Below are positions 3,429 to 52,103 of a stretch of DNA of 64,000 bases, piece by piece. The notes beneath the pieces are model-generated. The model worked only from the letters and a program-made list of their open reading frames with translations. It did not search any database and was not told the DNA's origin. The position numbers were made by a program, and so were the translations under genes. The stretch's first letter is position 1, and every line of letters begins with the position of its first letter. Origin of the DNA: Escherichia phage Ge15; sequence record PP359696.1; one strand, given 5' to 3'.

Positions 3429-3986
3429 ATGCAGAAAACGAATCCGGGTTTACAGAGACTATTTCAGATTCCGACATTTACCCTATCGAACAGTGACTTG
3501 ACTAGTGAAATGAAGGTCAAAATTGCTGATACAGCAAGATACTCTTTAAAACAAAACCCGAACCAGGATAAAGCAGAAGTTATTGAAAGATGCCGTATCG
3601 CAGTGTATGCTGAGTATGTTGTAGCAGATTGGTTAAGTGGGTATGTTAACAAAGGTCAAGAAGACGTCGATGATCCGTATACATATGCATGGGATGTTTT
3701 AGCACATCCAAAATACTGCGGGCTTCGGGTAGAAGTTAAAACACACCAAACTGACTCTCGATGGATTTCAGTAACGACAGGATACAGCGGAGAGTATCCA
3801 TACGGTTCTGGAATAAATCTAGGGCCCATTCTAAATCATCAAGTCGCTGACTGTATAATTATATTCAACACTAAAGAAATTCATCCAGGTGTCATCCAGT
3901 ACACTCCAAAGTTCATTGGGGATAGAGAAGACCTTCGTAAGGTAGTGCGAAAAAGCAACTACAACGGATGGTATCTTTCCATCTAA
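3429..3986 (+). CDS. denB: endonuclease IV (cytosine-DNA specific)
   Basis: 185-aa ORF; size and position after rIIB match T4 denB. Confidence 0.75.
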   Translation: MQKTNPGLQRLFQIPTFTLSNSDLTSEMKVKIADTARYSLKQNPNQDKAEVIERCRIAVYAEYVVADWLSGYVNKGQEDVDDPYTYAWDVLAHPKYCGLRVEVKTHQTDSRWISVTTGYSGEYPYGSGINLGPILNHQVADCIIIFNTKEIHPGVIQYTPKFIGDREDLRKVVRKSNYNGWYLSI

Positions 3987-4003
3987 AAATTTTCATAAAC
4001 TAG

Positions 4004-4032
4004 TTTACATACCACAAGGACCGTGGTACTAT
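4004..4032 (+). promoter_or_regulatory. T4-type early promoter (GTTTAC -35, 17-bp spacer, TACTAT -10)
   Basis: gtttac at 4004-4009, tactat at 4027-4032; followed by RBS ggagg and ATG at 4060. Confidence 0.5.
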
Positions 4033-4059
4033 ACAACTATCAACTACGGAGGAACAAAA

Positions 4060-4323: not shown

Positions 4324-4508
4324 GTTCATTATGGTGGTGTTTTGTTTGGTTAATTAGTATTCCATTGATTTGTTTAACATTTACTTTTGTGATGAGGTTA
4401 TTATGAAAATTTTTAATTCTGTACTTATTGCTTGTGCGTGGTGGGTTGCGCAAGTTTCGGCAGTAGTGATTGGTATTCACATTTATTACGAATATTTTTA
4501 AAAAAGTT

Positions 4509-4538
4509 GTTTACAAGACTGTTCTTCCGTGGTACTAT
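4509..4538 (+). promoter_or_regulatory. T4-type early promoter
   Basis: gtttac 4509-4514, tactat 4533-4538; same cassette as at 4004 and 23949. Confidence 0.5.
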
Positions 4539-4566
4539 TACCCTATCAACTACGGAGGAACAGAAA

Positions 4567-5981: not shown

Positions 5982-6115
5982 GAAAATCTTGGGCTATTCA
6001 TTAGCCCTTGCTACTTTATTAGTAGCACTATATTATGGAGTAATGTTCGGATTAATTCAAGTCGTGCTTTTCATTTCTGATGTTATTATGGCACTACATT
6101 CACTAGTATGGTAAA
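5975..6115 (+). CDS. small hydrophobic peptide (46 aa)
   Basis: ORF overlapping the preceding stop; strongly hydrophobic. Confidence 0.35.
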
Positions 6116-7626: not shown

Positions 7627-7649
7627 TTCAAAAATTTTTTCACAAAACG

Positions 7650-7679
7650 GTTTACAACCAAAGCATACTGTGGTACTAT
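7650..7679 (+). promoter_or_regulatory. T4-type early promoter upstream of motA
   Basis: gtttac 7650-7655, tactat 7674-7679. Confidence 0.5.
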
Positions 7680-7720
7680 ACAACTATCAACTACTGATAC
7701 AGAATTACGGAGATTAGAAA

Positions 7721-10020: not shown

Positions 10021-10171
10021 TCTTCAGAACGTAGTAGAGGCCGAACGTGAGCGTGAGGCTTTAGTCTATAATGAACTATTAGCTCCGTTCTTAGCCTTAC
10101 ACTCGTACGAACAGGAAGTCTACATTGATTATGTTAAAAGCGTAGAAAAGGCCGTTTACAATCAACACTGA
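10010..10171 (+). CDS. small hypothetical protein (53 aa)
   Basis: ATG with RBS aaggaac. Confidence 0.4.
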   Translation: MSHNLQNVVEAEREREALVYNELLAPFLALHSYEQEVYIDYVKSVEKAVYNQH

Positions 10172-10217
10172 TAATGGTACTATATCCATATCAACCAAGT
10201 GGAATGAATAAAACGTT

Positions 10218-11738: not shown

Positions 11739-14700
11739 TTATGCTAAACGAACGATATAGTTAAAAGCAATGTTTTTAACCGTGTTTTCTGTATTACCTG
11801 TACTATTTACAGTGATAGTATGTCCGTGCGAACCAATCGCTACTGAATGCGAGTGGGCACCGATACCTACAGTGTGAGTGTGAGCACCGATACCTACAGT
11901 ATGAGCATGGTTACCCGTAGCGCTAGTAGTACCTGACCAAGTATGAGTATGGTTACCTTCTGTTGATGTTTTGGCCATATTCGACGATGCAGTAGCACCG
12001 CTCACGGTTGCAGTGAATTTAGCGTTGCCGTTTGGACCTACAGTATTGTATCCGTCATAGAATACGCTAGTGGTTATGCCGCCTTGTACCTGAGGACCTG
12101 AACGCGCGTGTTGGTGGTTACCTGCTGCGGCAGTAGTTCCACTCACCGTATGGTTATGGTTACCTGTGGTATTACTGGTTTTAGTACCATAATCAAAGCT
12201 TGAAGATGTTTTAGTACCATAATCAAAGCTTGATGTGGTTTTAGTACCCAAATCAGTATTAGATGCAGAAGCACTATGATTATGAGACTTAATACCATCA
12301 GCTTCTGCACTCAACACTGCACGACCACTCGGTTTACCCTTGATAGTTTGACCACGCATATCAGGCAGAGTGCCGGAAGGATACACAGCAGCTAACTTAG
12401 GATACAAGTCAGCATCAAATGTTTGACCTTCCATTATGGCATAACCTTCAGGAGGTGTATCAGTAGGCCAAGGAATCGGAGCACCAATTGGATAACTTGA
12501 GACAATATCTGTCTTAAGGTTATTTATTGTGGTATTCAAGTTAGCAAAATTACCAGAACCACCAGTAATATTACCATCAGTACCGAATTGAGCATTACCA
12601 ACTTTTAATGGTTTAGTAATATCGACAGAATCAGAGTTTAATGCAATACCATGTGAATATGTGTAGCTGTGCATACGAACGACGTTGCCGCCATCTCCAA
12701 TACCTAAATACCATTTCGGAACATCTGCTTTACGTCCTTGAATGAAGTTAGAAGACTCTTGTGTTGGAGCATTTATTCTAATAGCATCTGATGCCATATT
12801 TACTGTTATGCGTTGACCAGCCGTAGTTCCAGCCGCTTCTACTTTAAATCTACCGCCGCCGATATCTACATCATGATCCATGGAAACTTTACCAGTACTT
12901 AATGTAATATAGAACGGACGTAAATTAGAAATACCACCTGATTCACCAACATTCTGTGGAGTTGGAATAATATAAAGCTTATCTTCAGAACGACGGAAAA
13001 TAGCCCCGTATTCAGCATCGTAAATACGGAAAGCATCAGCAGTCCCGCCAATTTTAACCTGTCCGGTAATTGAGGCACCACCTTGAACAAACAATCCATT
13101 ATTCATTGTAACGTTGCCAACTAGAGTGCTTAATCCGTTAACTCTAAGACTTCCGTCGGTTATTAAGCTTCCTCTAGCATTAACCTGTCCATTGAACTGA
13201 GTTACAACAGGGCCTGTAGTTTCAGAACCGGTCGGAGCTACGCGTTGAGAATAGAAATAATAACCTTGGCCATCAGAAACCTCAAATACGGTTTCTCGAG
13301 CTTTATCACCAGTAGCATTAAATGAGTTACCCCATGCTTTCACGGTCACATAACTTTTGTTCTGGCCTGCACGAGTACCGCCTTCCCAAAGGATTTGTTT
13401 GGTGCCATCAATACCTGAAGCCGCTTTAAAAACTAGAGAAGCATTAGTTCCATCACCATTAAAATATAATCCATTATTAAGTTTTAATGTTTGAACAGAA
13501 GCGATGGTACCATCAGCACGCAAATTTAACGAATTTGAACCAGTTTTAATATCTAAAATGCCAGGCTCAACAAGAAGCCCATCACCCATACTAATGGACA
13601 TACGACCCGTGCCACGGAAATAGTGATACATTTTAGAATTACTGCTATACCCGATATGAGTTTGACCATCACCATTATTATTACCATCAACATCGGTACG
13701 CGCAGTAAACATTGCTTGGTTGTTATTTGGGTAATCCCATGTAGTTCCGGAATCACGGCTATAACCAACCATCAATTTTTTAGTACTGTTAATACCATTG
13801 TTCAAAATGGTAGCCGAAGAAATACCGTTGGCCATTAAATCGATAACGCCGTCGCGAACCCATTTAATACCTGTATCGTTATCACCAATGGCAATACCAA
13901 TAGAAATAGCTGAATCTAATGGATAACGTCCATTCGCACCACTATCCGGAAGACCTACGGAAATAGATTTACCTGCAGTAATACGCCCGGAGGTATCAAA
14001 CGCCCACTGGAAAGATGATGGTCCAATACCAGTCCACCAAGAAATTTCTTGTGGCTTACCTTTTCGGCAATCGGCAATTTCATGGAAAATACTTGATGCA
14101 CTTGATGCACGCAATTTACGCAAATAGTTTAAACCATTAGTAGTATTATCAGAACCATCAGCCGGTGGGTTATAAACCCAAGTAGGTAAAGAAACCCAAT
14201 CATACCCGATGTTGGCGTTAGAGACAAATGTTTTTGTACTGAAATTAATATTTTTAGTAACAATTTCAGGACCGGTGATAATACCATTAGCAGAGTTAAT
14301 ATTGCCTGACGCAGAAATATTACCACTGCGAACTTCAAGACTGCCAGAATCTACAATAAAATTACCATTACGGTTAAAGACCCAGTGTTTAGAATTGTCT
14401 GGAGCTGTAGAATCAATATAATGAACTCTAAATGAGCCTTCGCTTACTAATGTACCTACTGAAAAAGTACCGTCTTTATAACGTTGCTTAATCAGAGGAT
14501 GGTATTCAGACCCTGAGGTAGTTGAACTCAAATCGGTGAAAATTGGAGCTTTATTTGTGTGCTGATTTGCCCAAGCACCATTTCCAGCAGTTTTTGGCAA
14601 GAATTCAATATACTTTCCTGCATAAACAAACTGATTTCCATTAAGATTATACGTGCCGTTTTGTAAATAATCACCATTTTGAGTAATATTTCCACTAATG

Positions 14701-23923: not shown

Positions 23924-23948
23924 TTTCAAAAAATTTTTTCACAAAACT

Positions 23949-23978
23949 GTTTACATCCTTGTTCTTCCGTGGTACTAT
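23949..23978 (+). promoter_or_regulatory. T4-type early promoter
   Basis: gtttac 23949-23954, tactat 23973-23978. Confidence 0.5.
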
Positions 23979-24021
23979 ACAACTATCGGCAATACTGCTG
24001 ATAATTAAAGAGGAAAATAAC

Positions 24022-24292: not shown

Positions 24293-24673
24293 ATGTATAT
24301 TGGCAAAAAGTATGAACTTGTTCCAAGACTTATTGATACATTTATTAATTATAGCCCACGTTCTAATTCATCAATCGTTAAAGCTATTCGAGATAATGGC
24401 GGATGGTTTGAAGTTAAAGAAGTTTCCGTCGCTAATGGATATAAAGCAGTAAAACACATTGAATGCGCAAATGGAAAGCATTTTTACCTCAAAGATAGAC
24501 TTTTAGAAATTTGCGAAGATGAATTTCATTGTTTTCGTGAGTATAAAGAACCGACTTCTGAAGAAGATGAAGTCAAAGACAAGGTTTCTGGCGTAACAAA
24601 AATTCACTGCATTGTTGACGAAAACAATGTAGATGAAATCATTGAACTTTTGCAAAAAACTTTCAAAAAGTAG
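24293..24673 (+). CDS. hypothetical protein
   Basis: 126-aa ORF with RBS gagg. Confidence 0.55.
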   Translation: MYIGKKYELVPRLIDTFINYSPRSNSSIVKAIRDNGGWFEVKEVSVANGYKAVKHIECANGKHFYLKDRLLEICEDEFHCFREYKEPTSEEDEVKDKVSGVTKIHCIVDENNVDEIIELLQKTFKK

Positions 24674-24702
24674 TTTACAGTAGGGTAGTAGTGTGATACT
24701 AT
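24674..24702 (+). promoter_or_regulatory. T4-type early promoter
   Basis: gtttac 24674-24679, tactat 24697-24702. Confidence 0.5.
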
Positions 24703-24811
24703 TACCCTATCAAAACTAATGGAGAAAAGAAAATGTTCGCACCTTATATTATGGCAGCAGTTATGTTGGTCTGTTTATATCTTTTGATTAAAGCTTGCTA
24801 AGGAGAATAAA

Positions 24812-42286: not shown

Positions 42287-42737
42287 GTTAGAGATAAGAA
42301 GCAATTTTAGATGGCCATCATGTGCATTAAGTAATTTCGCCCAATGGCCTTTTGTTATGGATGGTATCCAATTTGGAGGTCTCGAAGGATTCCTCCAAGG
42401 ATGCAAGGTGAAAAATGTTGAACAACAGCGTCGTATATTTGGGTTATCCGGGCTTGCCGCCCAACAAGCTGGAAGGTCTTATGCTAGAGCTCAGGACCGT
42501 GGGACCCTCTTCTGGCTTGGAGTTCCGTTTTCAAGATACTCCCCAGCGTGGAAAGAATTATACACAAATGCATATTTTGAAGCAGCGTTCCAAAACAAGG
42601 GCTTTCGCGATGCATTACAAGCCTCGAAAGGAAAAGTTTTGAAGCACAGCATGGCTAGTGGTCTAACAAAAGATGATACAATACTAACCGAAGCTGAATT
42701 TATTGATGTGTTAAACCTATTAAGAGACTCTCTATGA
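42273..42737 (+). CDS. YbiA/NADAR (DUF1768)-like protein, 30.3-like
   Basis: motif SNFAQWPFVMDGIQFGGLEGFLQGCKV parallels YbiA FSNFAAWP..DG...SEHYFQAQK; locally higher GC. Confidence 0.6.
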   Translation: MKMSELEIRSNFRWPSCALSNFAQWPFVMDGIQFGGLEGFLQGCKVKNVEQQRRIFGLSGLAAQQAGRSYARAQDRGTLFWLGVPFSRYSPAWKELYTNAYFEAAFQNKGFRDALQASKGKVLKHSMASGLTKDDTILTEAEFIDVLNLLRDSL

Positions 42738-43597
42738 AGCCTACTATTTTGACTGATATTGATGGAGTATGTTTAAGCTGGCAATCAGGCCTTCCTTATT
42801 TTGCTCAGAAATATAATCTTCCGTTAGAACATATTTTAAAAATGATCCAAGATGAGAAATTTATTTCTCCGGGTAAACTCTTTAATTGTGATGAAGAACT
42901 TGGTGTCAAGTTAATTGAAAAATATAATCGATCAGATTTTATTCGTTATTTGTCTCCATATAAAGATGCACTGTGTGTAATTAACAAATTAAAAGAAGAT
43001 TATAATTTTGTAGCTGTTACAGCATTGGGTGATTCTATTGACGCTCTGTTGAATCGTCAATTTAATTTGAATGCTCTTTTTCCTGGTGCCTTCTCAGAAG
43101 TAATGATGTGTGGTCATGATTCTTCAAAAGAAGAGTTATTCAAAAAGGCAAAAGAGAAATATAACGTAATTTGTTATATTGACGATCTCGCTCACCATTG
43201 CGATCATGCGAGTGAAATATTAAATGTTCCTGTTTATTGGATGGCGCGAGGAGAGCGTGACAATATTCCAAAAACCGCTCAGCGAGTTTATACATGGAAT
43301 GATGTAGAAAATAAGCTTTTTTCGCCGAAGGAAAATAAAGAAAGTTTTGATAATGAAAAAGCTATAAAAGATGTAATTGAGAAGATGGTTAAAAACGATT
43401 CTTTTCGTTGGAACACTACCTGGAGAACTCCTGGATTTAATCCGTATAATCCATATTATACACATCCATATAATCCATATTATACACACCCGTATCATAT
43501 GAATCCATTCCATACGTGGAGTTATACTAAGCCTGGTGATGCAGGGTATTTTAATAGATTTACTAGTGGTGATAATATTTTCCAAGGAGCATTCTAA
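42734..43597 (+). CDS. HAD-like hydrolase with C-terminal Tyr/Pro/His-rich repeats, 30.2-like
   Basis: N-terminal ILTDIDGV (DxDG HAD motif I); C-terminal NPYNPYYTHPYNPYYTHPYHMNPFH repeats. Confidence 0.6.
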   Translation: MKPTILTDIDGVCLSWQSGLPYFAQKYNLPLEHILKMIQDEKFISPGKLFNCDEELGVKLIEKYNRSDFIRYLSPYKDALCVINKLKEDYNFVAVTALGDSIDALLNRQFNLNALFPGAFSEVMMCGHDSSKEELFKKAKEKYNVICYIDDLAHHCDHASEILNVPVYWMARGERDNIPKTAQRVYTWNDVENKLFSPKENKESFDNEKAIKDVIEKMVKNDSFRWNTTWRTPGFNPYNPYYTHPYNPYYTHPYHMNPFHTWSYTKPGDAGYFNRFTSGDNIFQGAF

Positions 43598-43644
43598 TGT
43601 TTGTCGTTCACACTATTTATGAAAATGAAGGTAATACTACACGT
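43232..43644 (+). repeat. 413-bp direct repeat, copy 1 (3' end of 30.2-like gene plus first 48 bp of 30.1-like gene)
   Basis: identical to 45617-46029 by direct comparison. Confidence 0.9.
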
Positions 43645-44017
43645 CCGTATAATCCATATTATACACATCCATATAATCCATAATTTAATCCGTATAATCC
43701 ATATTATACACATCCTATAAAAAATTAAAATTAACCACAATAAGCGAATTGATTAAAAATATTTATTGTTCATTATCCGTCAGTAATCATCCCGGGCAAA
43801 TGCCCGGGAATTATTCTAGGATTATTTTCTTTGTTAAAAAAGACAAACGGTATTAACTGATGTATTTACTATTTACCGCTCCCTGCAGGGGGGATTATCA
43901 GAATCCGCGGTTATTCATTATTTATATACATTCAATAAAAAAGTAACCTCATAAAAAATCCTGTACTCACAGGGTGATGCGGGATAACTGACGTAAGGAG
44001 TGCTGCAGGGATTTGAT
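43645..44017. other. left arm of inserted block: scrambled phage micro-repeats then unique AT-rich DNA with GC palindromes
   Basis: 43645-43680 repeats 43442-43477, 43684-43715 repeats 43436-43467; then cccgggcaaatgcccggg, ctgcagggggg, ccgcgg. Confidence 0.6.
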
Positions 44018-44108
44018 TAGACTGGCCCCCTGAATCTCCAGACAACCAATATCACTTAAATAAGTGATAGTCTTAATACTAGTTTTTAGACTAGTCATTG
44101 GAGAACAG

Positions 44109-44474
44109 ATGATTGATGTCTTAGGGCCGGAGAAACGCAGACGGCGTACCACACAGGAAAAGATCGCAATTGTTCAGCAGAGCTTTGAACCGGGGATGAC
44201 GGTCTCCCTCGTTGCCCGGCAACATGGTGTAGCAGCCAGCCAGTTATTTCTCTGGCGTAAGCAATACCAGGAAGGAAGTCTTACTGCTGTCGCCGCCGGA
44301 GAACAGGTTGTTCCTGCCTCTGAACTTGCTGCCGCCATGAAGCAGATTAAAGAACTCCAGCGCCTGCTCGGCAAGAAAACGATGGAAAATGAACTCCTCA
44401 AAGAAGCCGTTGAATATGGACGGGCAAAAAAGTGGATAGCGCACGCGCCCTTATTGCCCGGGGATGGGGAGTAA
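44109..44474 (+). CDS. insC: IS2 InsC (orfA, HTH regulator/transposase N-terminus)
   Basis: 121-aa [29 protein letters not shown]... with A6G slippery site at 44426-44432. Confidence 0.85.
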
Positions 44475-45143
44475 GCTTAGTCAGCCGTTGTCTCCGGGTG
44501 TGCCAAACGTGTTTACCGGATCATGCGCCAGAATGCGCTGTTGCTTGAGCGAAAACCTGCTGTACCGCCATCGAAACGGGCACATACAGGCAGAGTGGCC
44601 GTGAAAGAAAGCAATCAGCGATGGTGCTCTGACGGGTTCGAGTTCTGCTGTGATAACGGAGAGAGACTGCGTGTCACGTTCGCGCTGGACTGCTGTGATC
44701 GTGAGGCACTGCACTGGGCGGTCACTACCGGCGGCTTCAACAGTGAAACAGTACAGGACGTCATGCTGGGAGCGGTGGAACGCCGCTTCGGCAACGATCT
44801 TCCGTCGTCTCCAGTGGAGTGGCTGACGGATAATGGTTCATGCTACCGGGCTAATGAAACACGCCAGTTCGCCCGGATGTTGGGACTTGAACCGAAGAAC
44901 ACGGCGGTGCGGAGTCCGGAGAGTAACGGAATAGCAGAGAGCTTCGTGAAAACGATAAAGCGTGACTACATCAGTATCATGCCCAAACCAGACGGGTTAA
45001 CGGCAGCAAAGAACCTTGCAGAGGCGTTCGAGCATTATAACGAATGGCATCCGCATAGTGCGCTGGGTTATCGCTCGCCACGGGAATATCTGCGGCAGCG
45101 GGCTTGTAATGGGTTAAGTGATAACAGATGTCTGGAAATATAG
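44432..45143 (+). pseudogene. insD: IS2 insD (orfB transposase catalytic part), frame disrupted by internal deletion
   Basis: orfB reads [23 protein letters not shown] then shifts at about 44501; the downstream DDE region (44523-45143) is in another frame. Confidence 0.8.
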
Positions 45144-45367
45144 GGGCAAATCCAATAAACAATTGGAATTTACTTCCATTGATCTGTTTACTCAGTGGTT
45201 GTCACTTTTATCGAGAAAGGTTTGCAGAACGCGGGTTTTTTTATAAGGTTCCTGATGTACTGAGGGATTATTTATCAGCTATACCGCTGGAAATAAATGA
45301 AAAGGCACGATACAAACCCGGCATCGCTAACTATCACAATATCATCACATGTGGTTTTTCAACGTTG

Positions 45368-45616
45368 TTACCCTATATAAGGCACGGCACCATGACAAAT
45401 ACGGGTATTCGCGCCGATAACAACTTCACCTGCAGTTTCATCAATAATTACCTGGTCTGCAATCTGAATATTTTTCTCTTTAACATTAAGCTTCAGATAG
45501 TTTTTCAGTTCCTGTGACAGAAGGTTGGGAATAAGCGGTTGACGCTTCCACCAGTGCGGAATAGCGGGTGGGTTTGTCGCGCTGAGGTTCGCGTCCAGTA
45601 AAAAAGGCAATAAGTC
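45368..45616 (-). pseudogene. 3' fragment of a non-phage gene (C-terminal about 80 codons ending ...GANTRICHGAVPYIG)
   Basis: coding-like - strand frame ending at a stop at 45368-45370, truncated at the junction with phage repeat copy 2; higher GC than the phage. Confidence 0.5.
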
Positions 45617-46029
45617 GTTTATTGGATGGCGCGAGGAGAGCGTGACAATATTCCAAAAACCGCTCAGCGAGTTTATACATGGAATGATGTAGAAAATAAG
45701 CTTTTTTCGCCGAAGGAAAATAAAGAAAGTTTTGATAATGAAAAAGCTATAAAAGATGTAATTGAGAAGATGGTTAAAAACGATTCTTTTCGTTGGAACA
45801 CTACCTGGAGAACTCCTGGATTTAATCCGTATAATCCATATTATACACATCCATATAATCCATATTATACACACCCGTATCATATGAATCCATTCCATAC
45901 GTGGAGTTATACTAAGCCTGGTGATGCAGGGTATTTTAATAGATTTACTAGTGGTGATAATATTTTCCAAGGAGCATTCTAATGTTTGTCGTTCACACTA
46001 TTTATGAAAATGAAGGTAATACTACACGT
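45617..46029 (+). repeat. 413-bp direct repeat, copy 2
   Basis: identical to 43232-43644. Confidence 0.9.
45626..45982 (+). pseudogene. truncated duplicate of the 30.2-like gene 3' end (118 codons from internal Met)
   Basis: translation identical to the C-terminal 118 aa of the 42734-43597 product; upstream context is foreign. Confidence 0.6.
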
Positions 46030-46251
46030 GATTACGGTCACGTAAATCAATTTTTTAGATGCAATCCAGAATTCCGAGCTCAAAAAGACGAACGAATTTT
46101 TAAAAAATGTGTAGAGCAAGGTTTCATTTACGTCAAGCACTGGATGCAAGGAAATAAAGTTAGAACTACATATCATAAGTCTTTGCCTGAGCTTAATGAT
46201 GAATTGATTTATAATAGAGCTGTAAACCAAACTTTGAAGGATGAGCAATGA
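45982..46251 (+). CDS. hypothetical protein (30.1 position)
   Basis: 89-aa ORF; start overlaps the stop of the 30.2-like ORF (TAATG). Confidence 0.55.
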   Translation: MFVVHTIYENEGNTTRDYGHVNQFFRCNPEFRAQKDERIFKKCVEQGFIYVKHWMQGNKVRTTYHKSLPELNDELIYNRAVNQTLKDEQ

Positions 46252-47711
46252 TTCTTAAAATTCTGAATGAAATAGCATCTATTGGATCAACTAAACAGAA
46301 GCAAGCAATTCTTGAAAAGAATAAAGATAATGAATTGCTTAAACGGGTATATCGTCTGACTTATTCTCGTGGGTTACAGTATTATATCAAGAAATGGCCT
46401 AAACCTGGTATTGCTACCCAGAGTTTTGGAATGCTGACTATTACCGATATGCTTGACTTCATTGAATTCACGTTAGCTACTCGGAAATTGACCGGAAATG
46501 CTGCAATTGAGGAATTGACTGGATATATCACCGATGGTAAAAAGGATGATGTTGAAGTTTTGCGTCGAGTGATGATGCGAGACCTTGAATGCGGTGCTTC
46601 AGTATCTATTGCAAACAAAGTTTGGCCAGGTTTAATTCCTGAACAACCTCAAATGCTGGCAAGTTCTTATGATGAAAAGGGCATTAGTAAGAATATCAAA
46701 TTTCCAGCCTTTGCACAGTTAAAAGCAGATGGAGCCCGGTGTTTTGCTGAAGTTAGAGGCGATGAATTAGATGATGTTCGTCTTTTATCACGAGCTGGTA
46801 ATGAATATCTAGGATTAGATCTTCTTAAGGAAGAATTAATCAAAATGACTGCTGAAGCCCGCCAGATTCATCCAGAAGGTGTGTTAATTGATGGCGAATT
46901 GGTATACCATGAGCAAGTTAAAAAGGAACCAGAAGGCCTAGATTTTCTTTTTGATGCTTATCCTGAAATTAGTAAAGCTAAAGAATTCGCCGAAGTAGCG
47001 GAATCTCGTACTGCTTCTAATGGAATCGCCAATAAATCCTTAAAAGGAACCATTTCCGAAAAAGAAGCCAAATGCATGAAGTTTCAGGTCTGGGATTATG
47101 TCCCGTTGGTAGAAATATACGGTCTTCCGGCGTTTCGTTTAAAATATGATGTACGTTTTTCTAAACTAGAACAAATGACATCAGGATATGATAAAGTAAT
47201 TTTAATTGAAAACCAGGTAGTAAATAACCTAGATGAAGCTAAGGTAATTTATAAAAAATATATTGACCAAGGTCTTGAAGGTATTATTCTCAAAAATACC
47301 GATGGATTGTGGGAAAATGCTCGTTCAAAAAATCTCTATAAATTTAAAGAAGTAATTGATGTTGATTTAAAAATTGTAGGAATTTATCCTCACCGTAAAG
47401 ACCCTACTAAAGCAGGTGGATTTATTCTTGAATCAGAGTGTGGAAAAATTAAAGTAAATGCTGGTTCAGGCTTAAAAGATAAAGCCGGTGTAAAATCACA
47501 TGAACTTGACCGTACTCGCATTATGGAAAACCAAAATTATTATATTGGAAAAATTCTAGAGTGCGAATGCAACGGTTGGCTAAAATCTGATGGCCGCACT
47601 GATTACGTAAAATTATTTCTTCCAATTGCGATTCGTTTACGTGAAGATAAAACTAAAGCTAATACATTCGAGGATGTATTTGGTGATTTTCATGAGGTAA
47701 CTGGTCTATGA
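46248..47711 (+). CDS. 30: ATP-dependent DNA ligase
   Basis: 487-aa ORF near-identical to T4 DNA ligase from MILKILNEIASIGSTKQKQAIL...; adenylation lysine motif region present. Confidence 0.95.
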   Translation: MILKILNEIASIGSTKQKQAILEKNKDNELLKRVYRLTYSRGLQYYIKKWPKPGIATQSFGMLTITDMLDFIEFTLATRKLTGNAAIEELTGYITDGKKDDVEVLRRVMMRDLECGASVSIANKVWPGLIPEQPQMLASSYDEKGISKNIKFPAFAQLKADGARCFAEVRGDELDDVRLLSRAGNEYLGLDLLKEELIKMTAEARQIHPEGVLIDGELVYHEQVKKEPEGLDFLFDAYPEISKAKEFAEVAESRTASNGIANKSLKGTISEKEAKCMKFQVWDYVPLVEIYGLPAFRLKYDVRFSKLEQMTSGYDKVILIENQVVNNLDEAKVIYKKYIDQGLEGIILKNTDGLWENARSKNLYKFKEVIDVDLKIVGIYPHRKDPTKAGGFILESECGKIKVNAGSGLKDKAGVKSHELDRTRIMENQNYYIGKILECECNGWLKSDGRTDYVKLFLPIAIRLREDKTKANTFEDVFGDFHEVTGL

Positions 47712-47945: not shown

Positions 47946-50042
47946 ATGATGGAACTCATTACAGAATTATTTGACGAAGATACTACTCTTCCGATTACAA
48001 ACTTAAATCCAAAGAAGAAAATACCACAAATTTTTTCAGTTCATGTTGATGACGCAATTGAACAACCAGGCTTTCGTTTATGTACCTATACATCTGGAGG
48101 TGATACTAATCGCGATTTAAAGATGGGCGATAAAATGATGCATATTGTTCCTTTTACATTAACTGCTAAAGGTTCAATTGCTAAATTAAAAGGTCTCGGT
48201 CCAAGCCCAATTAATTACATCAATTCAGTTTTTACTGTTGCGATGCAGACGATGCGTCAGTATAAAATTGATGCCTGTATGCTTCGTATTCTTAAGTCTA
48301 AAACTGCTGGTCAAGCTCGTCAAATTCAACTTATTGCTGATAGACTTATCCGCAGTCGTTCAGGTGGCAGATACGTCCTTCTTAAGGAACTCTGGGATTA
48401 CGATAAAAAGTATGCATATATTCTTATACATCGCAAAAATGTATCACTAGAAGACATTCCAGGAGTTCCAGAAATTAGCACCGAGCTCTTTACTAAAGTT
48501 GAATCAAAGGTTGGTGATGTTTATATCAATAAAGATACTGGAGCTCAAGTAACTAAAAATGAGGCAATTGCTGCATCTATTGCGCAAGAAAACGATAAAC
48601 GTTCTGACCAAGCTGTAATCGTTAAAGTTAAAATTTCCCGTAGAGCAATTGCACAAAGTCAATCATTAGAATCTTCTAGATTTGAAAGTGAATTATTCCA
48701 AAAGTATGAATCTACCGCAGCTAATTTCAATAAACCTGCTACGGCTCCTTTAATTCCCGAAGCAGAAGAAATGAAGCTTGGAATTAATTCATTAGCTTCT
48801 AAAACTAAAGCAGCAAAAATTATTGCTGAAGGAACTGCAGATGAACTTCATTATGACTATAAATTCTTTTCAAAAAGTGAGGTTAATGAAGTTTCTGAAA
48901 AAATTAAAGATGTAATTCTTAATGCGATTAAAAATGAACCAACTACTTCAATAAAATGTTTAGAGAAATACGCAGCAGCTGTTAATCAATTATTTGAAGA
49001 ATATAAAGATAATTGGCTTGATAAACATAATAAAACCCGTAAAGGACAGCCAGATGAAGTCTGGGAAGAAATGACTAAAAATTCCTGGAACGCAGCAAAA
49101 ACTAAATTCCTCAAAAGAATGATTTACAGCTTTTCTGGAATTGGTGCAGGTCCAATGATTGATATTACTATTGCCCGTGATGGTTCTAAATATACTCCAT
49201 CACAAAAGCGTGGCATTAGAGAGTATTGCGGTTCAGGATATACTGACATCAATAATCTTCTTTTAGGACGCTACAATCCAGAACGATATGATGTAATGAG
49301 TGAAAAAGAAATTGAATCTGCTATAAATAACTTAGATTCAGCTTTTGAAAATGGTGACCGTATACCAGAAGGCATTACAGTTTATCGTGCTCAAAGCATG
49401 ACTGCTCCTATATACGAAGCACTAGTTAAAAATAAAGTGTTCTATTTCAGAAATTTTGTATCTACTTCTTTAACTCCTATCATTTTTGGACGTTTTGGAA
49501 TTACGCATACTGGTATTGGTCTTTTAGAACCAGAAGCTCGTAATGAATTGACAGTTGATAAAAATGAAGAAGGAATAACTATTAATCCAAGCGAAATAAG
49601 AGCGTATAAAGAAAATCCTGAATACGTTAAAGTTCAAATAGGATGGGCAATTGATGGAGCTCATAAAGTTAATGTTGTATATCCAGGAAGTCTCGGAATA
49701 GCAACAGAAGCTGAAGTTATTCTACCACGAGGATTGATGGTCAAAGTTAATAAAATAACTGATGCTTCTAATAATGACGGAACAACATCTAATAATACAA
49801 AACTCATTCAAGCTGAAGTTATGACTACGGAAGAACTCACCGAATCAGTCATTTATGACGGTGACCGTCTAATGGAAACTGGTGAAGTAGTTGCAATGAC
49901 AGGTGATATTGAAATAGAAGACAGAGTTGACTTTGCATCATTTGTTTCATCAAATGTTAAACAAAAAGTAGAATCATCTCTTGGAATTATTGCGTCTTGC
50001 ATAGATATTACAAACATGCCTTACAAGTTCGTTCAAGGATAA
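47946..50042 (+). CDS. alt: Alt-family ADP-ribosyltransferase (capsid-packaged, injected)
   Basis: 698-aa ORF; N-terminal MELITELFDE; position between ligase and baseplate genes as T4 alt. Confidence 0.75.
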   Translation: MMELITELFDEDTTLPITNLNPKKKIPQIFSVHVDDAIEQPGFRLCTYTSGGDTNRDLKMGDKMMHIVPFTLTAKGSIAKLKGLGPSPINYINSVFTVAMQTMRQYKIDACMLRILKSKTAGQARQIQLIADRLIRSRSGGRYVLLKELWDYDKKYAYILIHRKNVSLEDIPGVPEISTELFTKVESKVGDVYINKDTGAQVTKNEAIAASIAQENDKRSDQAVIVKVKISRRAIAQSQSLESSRFESELFQKYESTAANFNKPATAPLIPEAEEMKLGINSLASKTKAAKIIAEGTADELHYDYKFFSKSEVNEVSEKIKDVILNAIKNEPTTSIKCLEKYAAAVNQLFEEYKDNWLDKHNKTRKGQPDEVWEEMTKNSWNAAKTKFLKRMIYSFSGIGAGPMIDITIARDGSKYTPSQKRGIREYCGSGYTDINNLLLGRYNPERYDVMSEKEIESAINNLDSAFENGDRIPEGITVYRAQSMTAPIYEALVKNKVFYFRNFVSTSLTPIIFGRFGITHTGIGLLEPEARNELTVDKNEEGITINPSEIRAYKENPEYVKVQIGWAIDGAHKVNVVYPGSLGIATEAEVILPRGLMVKVNKITDASNNDGTTSNNTKLIQAEVMTTEELTESVIYDGDRLMETGEVVAMTGDIEIEDRVDFASFVSSNVKQKVESSLGIIASCIDITNMPYKFVQG

Positions 50043-50045
50043 ATC

Positions 50046-52103
50046 ATGGAACTTATTACAGAATTATTTGACGGCGCTTCGGCGCCGGTTGTTAACTTAA
50101 ATCCTAAGCATAAAATACCTCAAATTTTTGCTATTCAAACCGGTGAAGAAAGCGTGCTTCCTGGATTTAGATTTTGTACATACACCTCTGGCGGTGATAC
50201 AAATAAAAACGTTAAGCCAGGCGATAAAATGATGCATATCGTAATGATAGGTGTTAATGAGAAACTATCATTAGTTAAACTTAAAAACTTGGGTGGAAAT
50301 CCAATTGGTGTCATTAATGCGGTTTTTGATACTGCTCTTCAAACAATGAAACAGTATAAAATTGACGCATGCCTATTCCGCGTACTAAAAAGTAAAACAA
50401 ATGGTGCAGCTCGTCAAATGCAAGTTATTGCTGACCGTTTAGTACGTACTAAAGGAGCAGGTCGATATGTTCTTTTAAAGGAAATCTGGGATTACGATAA
50501 AAAGTATGCATATATTATGGTTTACCGTAAAAATGCCAATTTAGAAGACATTCCAGGTGTACCTCCTATTTCAACTGAGTTATTCACAAAAGTTGAATCA
50601 AAGGTTGGTGATGTTTATGTAGATGTTAAAACAGGTAATGCTGTTCCTAAAGCTGTTGCTGTTGCTGCTTCTATTGCTTTAGAAAATGATAAGCGCACGG
50701 ATCAAGCTGTTATTCAGAAAACTAAAATTAGTCGTCGATTGGCAGCACAAGCTCAATATTCTACTGTCGATGCTTCGCTTCAGGGTGATAGCTTCGCTGC
50801 CAAGAAATATCAAGAGTTTGAATCTAAAGTTCCGGTATATAAAGCAGAAGGACCAATGAACTCTGGTGTTATTCAGATTGGTTCAAACTTCAGCAAAGGA
50901 GCTATCGGTGGTATGAGAAGTGCTTCTCGTTTTAAATCTAACGATTATGAACTAGAAAGCTTCCGAAATCATATTGCATTGGCTCATGCACGTTTACGTG
51001 ATCCGTCTATCAGACTGCAGAGCGATATAACACATCAAGGTTCTCAAGAATATTTAAAGAATAAAGAATTTTTTGATTATAAAACCGATAAAATTTTGAG
51101 CGATCTCGCTGACATTAATATTTCTAATAGCTTTGATGTTATTAAGAAAATTATCAATGATTTAGTTAAAGGTTCTAAAGCCACGCCAGACGAAAAGGTA
51201 GCTATTATTCAATTTGTTATGAATGGCATTTATAAATTGATTAATGAATCTGCTGCTCAGGCATATGAATACGCAAGCACCGAAGTAACTCCAAAAGGAT
51301 TAACTCAGGCTGAGTCTGATGTAATAGAAGATTATTGTGCAGATTCATATGTTGAAATGAACTCGTTCCTCTTGGGTAAACCAGATTCTACCCGTGAAGA
51401 ATACATGGAACGAGCTATTAAACACATCGAGACAATGGATTCTGCATTCGCTAAAGGTTCAGTTCTTCCTCCAGGAACTACGCTTTATCGTGGACAAGAA
51501 GTTACTTTTAAAACTTTACGTCATAATATTGAAAATAAAATGTTCTATTTCAAGAACTTCGTATCCACATCGCTTAAACCAAATATCTTCGGTGAGCATG
51601 GTAAAAACTATATGGCTCTAGATGATTCCGGCGCAGTATTTTCTGGCGAAGGAGAAGGTTCAGTTGATGCTGAAGATTTAATGCATATGGGTAGTCACTC
51701 TGCTTATGCGAATGAAGACGCTGAAACTAGCGTAGGTATGGTAATTAAAGGGGCTGAGCGAATCAAAGTTATCGTTCCAGGTCATTTATCAGGATTTCCA
51801 TCAGAAGCTGAAGTTATTTTACCGCGTGGAATTTTGCTGAAGATTAATAAAGTGAGCACGTACATGATGAAAGAAACTGCTTATAATAAGTATCTAATCG
51901 AAGGCACAATCGTTCCTCCTTCTGAACAATTAGAAGAATCGGTATATGATGGCGATCATCTAATGGAAACTGGTGAAGTTCGTCCAATGGCTGGGTTTAA
52001 TCAATTCCTTGTAGAAGAATCAAAAGAAGAGGAAAACGAAGTTTCTCAAATCTTGGCTTCTTTGGTTAACATCAACGGAATGTCTAAAAAGTTCAAGATG
52101 TAG
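50046..52103 (+). CDS. Alt-like paralogue
   Basis: 685-aa ORF; same N-terminus MELITELFD and collinear similarity to the upstream alt product. Confidence 0.7.
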   Translation: MELITELFDGASAPVVNLNPKHKIPQIFAIQTGEESVLPGFRFCTYTSGGDTNKNVKPGDKMMHIVMIGVNEKLSLVKLKNLGGNPIGVINAVFDTALQTMKQYKIDACLFRVLKSKTNGAARQMQVIADRLVRTKGAGRYVLLKEIWDYDKKYAYIMVYRKNANLEDIPGVPPISTELFTKVESKVGDVYVDVKTGNAVPKAVAVAASIALENDKRTDQAVIQKTKISRRLAAQAQYSTVDASLQGDSFAAKKYQEFESKVPVYKAEGPMNSGVIQIGSNFSKGAIGGMRSASRFKSNDYELESFRNHIALAHARLRDPSIRLQSDITHQGSQEYLKNKEFFDYKTDKILSDLADINISNSFDVIKKIINDLVKGSKATPDEKVAIIQFVMNGIYKLINESAAQAYEYASTEVTPKGLTQAESDVIEDYCADSYVEMNSFLLGKPDSTREEYMERAIKHIETMDSAFAKGSVLPPGTTLYRGQEVTFKTLRHNIENKMFYFKNFVSTSLKPNIFGEHGKNYMALDDSGAVFSGEGEGSVDAEDLMHMGSHSAYANEDAETSVGMVIKGAERIKVIVPGHLSGFPSEAEVILPRGILLKINKVSTYMMKETAYNKYLIEGTIVPPSEQLEESVYDGDHLMETGEVRPMAGFNQFLVEESKEEENEVSQILASLVNINGMSKKFKM

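Follow-up and report, generated by a model that had tools for sequence, protein, structure and literature searches.

The window analysed here, a stretch of 64,000 nucleotides from the record of Escherichia phage Ge15 (PP359696.1), belongs to a T4-type phage that shares 96–97 % identity with known Tequatrovirus genomes over 23.6 kb, while no phage record matches it at 99 % identity. The locus of interest comprises a 30.2-like gene (42734–43597, 287 aa) with an internal 24-bp tandem repeat that encodes YNPYYTHP units, an intact copy of 30.1 (45982–46251), and the DNA ligase gene 30 (gp30, 46248–47711). The ligase, 30.1, and 30.2 proteins are all identical to proteins of other phages. The stretch at 44–45 kb is the only GC-rich one of the 64-kb window, the remainder of which is clean, as it contains no Ns and is free of further odd repeats and of further anomalies in GC content. 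Beyond the ligase gene, two adjacent paralogous ADP-ribosyltransferase (Alt-like) genes (47946–50042 and 50043–52100) are found, which are ~71–80 % identical in stretches; the pair is also present in relatives, and the first copy (698 aa, 47946–50042) has no exact match in a large protein-position index. Elsewhere in the window, a tandem pair of 30-nt units with 90 % identity (GTTTTAGTACCATAATCAAAGCTTGA...) lies at 12178–12237, and a family of 66-nt repeats with GTTTACA...GGTACTAT, which resembles T4-type early promoters, recurs at 3985–4050, 4491–4556, 7632–7697, 10136–10201, 23931–23996, and 24655–24720.

The locus is interrupted by an insert of 1,972 bp (43645–45616), of which the left arm studied here (43645–44017) constitutes the left part, and which is flanked on either side by a copy of one phage segment, the two copies agreeing in 413 of 413 positions. 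Copy 1 (43232–43644, + strand) contains the 3′ 366 bp of the 30.2-like gene and the first 48 nt of 30.1, and copy 2 (45617–46029, + strand) runs on into the intact 30.1 and the DNA ligase gene. The sequences diverge immediately outside both ends of the 413-bp copies and, despite the insert, one intact copy each of 30.2 and 30.1 remains. Read from left to right, the insert is composed of two short re-copied phage segments (a and b), a piece of yqiG, the end of intB, IS2, a piece of ygeO, and a piece of yaiX/yaiP, and represents an IS2-centred patchwork of K-12 DNA. In its left arm, which encodes nothing functional, unrelated DNA pieces are butt-joined into a chain without homology.

The first two links of this chain are phage DNA. 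Segment a (43645–43682, 38 nt, + strand) is an exact re-copy of 43442–43479, i. e., of the YNPYYTHP repeat DNA of 30.2, and segment b (43683–43715, 33 nt, + strand) is an exact re-copy of 43435–43467; exact repeats this long are not expected by chance in 64 kb. The original prediction had pointed out a re-use of 30.2-like DNA at 43645 and 43684, which is indeed exact and slightly longer than claimed, so that the re-use itself stands while its sizes of 36 and 32 nt have to be corrected to 38 and 33 nt, respectively. Segment a keeps the reading frame, and the joint in front of it cuts 30.1 copy 1 to 28 aa (MFVVHTIYENEGNTTRPYNPYYTHPYNP, followed by a stop), a truncated product that ends in PYNPYYTHPYNP. 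The string across this joint was found in 0 of 30 related-phage loci. It had further been proposed that the junction was formed by slipped or illegitimate recombination inside the YNPYYTHP-coding DNA, and both segments do trace back to the 24-bp tandem repeat within the 30.2-like gene. Slippage, however, would gain or lose whole units in register at the repeat itself, whereas segments a and b sit 165–250 bp downstream of their source, past the start of 30.1 and out of register. Since their joints share just 0–1 nt with the parental sequences, the segments do not represent repeat-unit slippage, and the proposed mechanism must be regarded as very improbable.

The remaining 302 bp of the left arm (43716–44017) had been described as AT-rich, unique DNA, for which a comparison with bacterial genomes had been suggested. 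This comparison yields a match of 100 % to the E. coli K-12 chromosome. Uniqueness thus holds within the window, as does the low GC content (0.18 for 43716–43780 and 0.38 for 43781–44017), but not overall. Two host pieces from loci 1.3 Mb apart are present, which the original prediction had missed, and each of them normally abuts a different IS2 copy. The first of these, a 65-bp piece of yqiG (43716–43780, + strand), starts at codon 2, corresponds to K-12 NC_000913.3 3186028–3186092 (65/65 identity to L004, positions 6029–6093), and stops 3 bp short of the left end of IS2I. The second, a 237-bp piece from the 3′ end of intB (43781–44017, + strand; 237/237 identity to K-12), starts 3 nt before the stop codon, comprises the last sense codon, TAA (43784–43786), and the downstream spacer, and stops 9 bp (GGTCCCTTG) short of the left end of IS2K. 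The arm, including a hairpin that is described below, is 100 % identical to intB-IS2K (in the KpLE2 element) and yqiG::IS2I of K-12, where the sequences run towards the IS2 left end. In K-12, each of the two distant loci continues into its IS2, whereas here they are fused, with the 3 and 9 bp missing.

The palindromes in this DNA had attracted attention as possible restriction sites. What had been read as a SmaI palindrome is a terminator-like hairpin just after intB (tcccgggcaaatgcccggga, 43790–43809, + strand), in which cccgggcaaatgcccggg (43791–43808) begins four bases past the intB stop codon and forms an 8-pair stem with 7 G-C pairs. The surrounding 56 nt (43775–43830) fold at −23.5 kcal/mol (z = −4.6 as compared to shuffles), and with no match to Rfam families in the left arm, the intB hairpin is its sole structure. 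In addition, there are two PstI sites (43883 and 44003) and one SacII site (43905) in the arm. As regards the notion that such palindromes are unusual in this phage, the left arm contains two of the five CCCGGG sites of the window and its sole CCGCGG, whereas CTGCAG occurs often in the phage, with 14 sites outside the insert. As to their origin, the view that they are natural sequence of the donor is borne out, the donor being the E. coli K-12 chromosome at 100 % identity. The alternative of traces of a cloning polylinker fails, as the sites are embedded in chromosomal K-12 DNA; PLSDB (which covers natural plasmids, not cloning vectors) has no record covering the left arm.

These findings also bear on an engineered origin, according to which a cloning or insertion vector with a 413-bp phage fragment would have integrated and left the palindromes as polylinker remains. 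A defined segment of homology that is directly duplicated on both sides of foreign DNA marks the integration of a plasmid by single crossover, and T4 insertion/substitution vectors that integrate in this way give a direct duplication of the cloned homology. The likeness of the locus to a Campbell-type integration accordingly lies in its perfect 413-bp direct duplication and in the one intact copy of both interrupted genes. Besides 71 nt of re-copied phage DNA, however, the insert matches the K-12 chromosome and IS2 at 100 % but for a single base, with no vector backbone, replicon, origin, marker, supF/tRNA gene (the left arm contains neither a tRNA nor a supF gene), or polylinker, and any integrating circle would need to have been ligated ad hoc from pieces of phage and host DNA. 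Given that there is no backbone, vector integration is excluded, and next to no credence is left for an engineered origin.

The centre of the insert is formed by an IS2 with both termini (44018–45154, + strand), which measures 1,137 bp and is without 194 internal bp (IS2 positions 485–678), the deletion joint at 44501/44502 showing 1 nt of microhomology. As a complete IS2 comprises 1,331 bp with both terminal inverted repeats, the copy in the insert is incomplete. OrfA is intact (44109–44474), while the frame of the OrfB/OrfAB transposase is destroyed by the deletion. The donor copy of this IS2 is not assignable, because the four K-12 copies compared are identical. Ordinary transposition of IS2 into the phage genome would leave both termini in place, as is the case here, but would also be expected with a 5-bp target duplication, which is lacking (TTGAT on the left, ATAAA on the right). 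In addition, the DNA outside the IS2 ends is not phage DNA but host DNA from two different loci, which separates IS2 from the phage on both sides. Ordinary transposition is excluded on account of the missing target duplication and the host DNA on both sides, and with the transposase frame broken as well, its probability is practically nil. Figure-eight or minicircle intermediates of IS2 were likewise rejected as an origin of the flanks or blunt joints, as the ends of the pieces do not fit transposition geometry, and so was template jumping by a reverse transcriptase, as they do not fit transcript geometry either.

The right arm (45155–45616) mirrors the left one. It begins with a 230-bp piece of the ygeO pseudogene (45155–45384, + strand), which in K-12 is contiguous with the right end of IS2H, followed by a 232-bp piece of yaiX/yaiP (45385–45616, + strand; K-12 NC_000913.3 382638–382869, 100 % identity), which begins 46–47 bp beyond the right end of IS2A and is bluntly joined to phage DNA at 45616/45617. 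The only departure of the insert from K-12 is a G at 45262 in the single-copy ygeO flank. All of the 5,426 complete E. coli genomes have an A at this position, and the best match amounts to 99.6 %. The four host pieces hence flank four different IS2 copies of K-12, namely IS2I, IS2K, IS2H, and IS2A. They are co-oriented, and each lies on the same side of IS2 as in K-12, at distances of 3, 9, 0, and 46–47 bp from the respective IS2 ends, and three of them are near-uniform in length (230, 232, and 237 bp). In MG1655, six places match a probe that includes the IS2 left end. Assuming about six IS2 copies, we infer that four random fragments would all be IS2-flanking with a probability on the order of 1e−12.

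Each of the eight new joints was compared with both parental sequences, with which 1, 0, 0, 0, 0, 1, 1, and 0 nt are shared. Besides the deletion joint within IS2, microhomology of 1 nt is present at 43644/43645 (J1) and 45384/45385 (J8), and of 0 nt at 43682/43683 (J2), 43715/43716 (J3), 43780/43781 (J4), 44017/44018 (J5), and 45616/45617 (J9). The total of 3 nt compares with a simulated chance mean of 5.5 (P = 0.25 for a sum of 3 or less), and inspection of the parental sequences revealed no restriction sites or shared motif at the breakpoints. Joints made by MMBIR normally show at least 2 nt of microhomology; template switching of the MMBIR/FoSTeS type was rejected, as microhomology is not above chance at the eight joints. 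By contrast, joints without homology and filler that is traceable to other loci, the features of homology-independent joining with filler, are both found here. The structure shares with filler capture, as described for T4-ligase end joining (PMC6525309), MMBIR, and chromoanasynthesis, the occurrence of short segments from near and distant sources at one breakpoint. It differs from MMBIR in the chance level of homology of the insert, and from repair models in general in that the filler is restricted to IS2 flanks, which is predicted by none of them.

While each component is a known sequence, the arrangement itself is recorded nowhere else. Among the 5,426 complete E. coli genomes, none joins yqiG to intB or ygeO to yaiX, and none contains J5, i. 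e., the joint of IS2 with an intB flank shortened by 9 bp; the 194-bp deletion of IS2 is equally absent from E. coli genomes. A pre-existing arrangement of this kind in some E. coli strain was rejected on the grounds that the joints and the IS2 deletion are absent from complete genomes. Moreover, IMG/VR contains none of J1, J4, J5, and J9, and neither J4 nor J9 occurs in GTDB genomes or JGI metagenomes. Five ORFs that span junctions or are specific to the insert have no match among 153 billion gene positions. On the phage side, none of 627 matching phage records covers the insert, fifteen related-phage loci carry an undisrupted 30.1 sequence, and in all relatives with identical 30.2, 30.1, or ligase proteins, 30.2 is located directly before 30.1. 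The original prediction is not refuted by a presence of the segment at this position in T4-like relatives without IS2, as it is missing from the 15 related-phage loci and from all phage records searched. The empty site, in which 30.2 leads straight into 30.1 (...ACTACACGT followed directly by GATTACGG...), is displayed by a single identical contig from Logan (L008; SRR25221740_1198, 1–1707), which equals the window minus 43645–46029 in 1707 of 1707 bases and stops 7 nt past the position of J1. This contig is short and may come from a related phage and not from the same one; its sample perhaps holds a relative, as the Alt-like protein encoded at 47946–50042 is not on record anywhere.

IS2-like DNA was detected in 9 of 50,697 phage records, with no Tequatrovirus among them, and a search of the literature on IS2 in T4-type phages found nothing. 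Where IS2 is present in phage records (e. g., Stx phages, SfX, PhiR11_1, and phi456), both terminal repeats lie within the phage record, as is the case here. Eight of the nine IS2-bearing records contain a near full-length IS2 (~1,330 bp); seven of these eight belong to phages of the temperate type, and the eighth is phi456. As compared to these, the IS2 described here is internally deleted, lacks a target duplication, is enclosed by flanks of four other IS2 copies, and resides in a virulent phage of the T4 type. A further observation concerns Escherichia phage BP9 (PP488543.1, Vequintavirus; L031, 2501–2881), a virulent rV5-type phage, the record of which includes 381 bp from the left end of IS2 (95.8 % identity) that are annotated as InsA and overlap the end of rIIB. 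It is another possible case of host IS capture, or of a chimera, in the record of a lytic phage.

Judging from the sequence, the patchwork was probably made in silico from contaminating reads of the K-12 host. The sequenced DNA would have been that of a phage lysate grown on K-12 with a little host DNA, from which only the multi-copy IS2 would have drawn enough reads to assemble, with a hole of 194 bp left behind. Single read-sized pieces from the unique flanks would then have been tethered to IS2 by mates or by boundary-crossing reads, and the tethered flanks of different IS2 copies would have been placed in series, on the right side and in the right orientation. Once short stretches without sequence (3, 9, and 46 bp) had been collapsed along with scaffold gaps, the resulting string may have been inserted at a contig break in the 24-bp tandem repeat of 30.2. 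The 413-bp "duplication" would accordingly be an unmerged overlap of two contig ends, and in the true phage 30.1 would directly follow 30.2, as it does in all relatives.

Chimeras that arise by repeat-induced scaffolding and contamination occur in genome assemblies. The insert resembles them in its multi-copy element at the centre, its serial and co-oriented flanks, and its read-sized pieces, as well as in the collapsed gaps, the duplicated contig-end overlap, and the one private base. The confinement of host DNA to IS2 flanks would be a natural outcome of read-pair tethering to a repeat. The 413-bp duplicate covers the sole tandem repeat in this region, from which segments a and b stem as well, and fits a contig break at this very repeat, with overlapping ends that were never merged. 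The pieces of 230, 232, and 237 bp are read-sized and oddly uniform and, we infer, fit an artefact, and the missing 3, 9, and 46–47 bp together with the hole of 194 bp look like closed-up coverage gaps. One private base (45262) roughly equals the error load for ~760 nt of single-read flank, while a new mutation at this position in a recently acquired insert is very unlikely; recent it must be, as the IS2 sites that it reflects are those found in K-12, a laboratory strain. In the same direction point the searches, in which none of the joints covered found independent support, and the chance level of joint homology.

Several points nevertheless argue against an assembly artefact. Standard assemblers place Ns where contigs are scaffolded and would not string together the alternative flanks of a single repeat; as there are no Ns here and flanks are chained, a particular pipeline or a manual removal of gaps has to be assumed. 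The 33- and 38-nt phage segments are not obvious products of an assembler, do not match the de Bruijn unitig boundaries of the 20-nt exact repeat, and look like the short templated insertions at real repair joints. Furthermore, an artefact gives no reason why stray host contigs should be linked to this site of all sites in the phage, the 64-kb window is otherwise clean, and the structure is viable in biological terms, since one intact 30.2 and one intact 30.1 survive.

A real event in vivo is a possible, albeit rather unlikely, alternative. Phage chromosomes broken at 43644 and 43232 would have been bridged in a K-12 cell by homology-independent end joining, and the captured filler would comprise host fragments associated with IS2 as well as two short copies templated by phage DNA close by. 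In an equivalent form, a 2,385-bp circle of these pieces could have been integrated by one crossover through the 413-bp phage segment. The outcome would be a tandem duplication with an insert that leaves both 30.2 and 30.1 intact. Blunt joints with chance-level homology are what is expected of joining by a ligase or topoisomerase, and the exact 413-bp duplication is the result of a Campbell-type integration. The phage encodes the gp30 ligase, and in E. coli a T4 DNA ligase suffices for the end joining of breaks in the chromosome (PMC6525309). Short templated insertions from a distance of up to 250 bp are typical of break-repair scars, and K-12, to which the host pieces correspond, is commonly used as a host in the laboratory. 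The start of one host fragment coincides with the first base of IS2, whereas the remaining fragments are 3–47 bp away from IS2 ends, and such positions could reflect breaks at IS termini.

On the other hand, transposition of IS2 is rare, and host DNA is broken everywhere in a T-even infection, which makes a filler from IS2 flanks alone hard to justify. A serial route driven by IS2 homology would need at least four independent illegitimate joins that became fixed in the stock. A real event also leaves the uniform pieces of 230–237 bp and the private base at 45262, in a necessarily recent insert, without explanation, and IS2 is present in no other Tequatrovirus among the 50,697 phage records. 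We consider it doubtful that the structure is real, with seven fragments stitched between two phage ends without homology in one event. It is as doubtful that two of these fragments were taken from the phage repeat and five only from IS2 and from the DNA beside four of its chromosomal copies.

Irrespective of whether an artefact or a real capture is assumed, the left arm carries no function. If the patchwork is an artefact of assembly from host reads, as we favour, ~2.4 kb (43645–46029) should be removed from the record, and "IS2 in a T4-like phage" should stay out of surveys of mobile elements and host-gene capture in virulent phages. The combination of a multi-copy element, serial flanks of its different copies, read-sized pieces, and blunt joints would furthermore be usable as a diagnostic for such chimeras. 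If, however, the structure is real, no second Tequatrovirus with IS2 would be present in the 50,697 phage records searched, and the phage would offer a rare case, open to dissection, in which a T-even-type phage captured several fragments of host DNA independently of homology. Free DNA in the infected cell would then come preferentially from the termini of IS elements, and T-even phages would be able to acquire host DNA, a mobile element included, by end joining.
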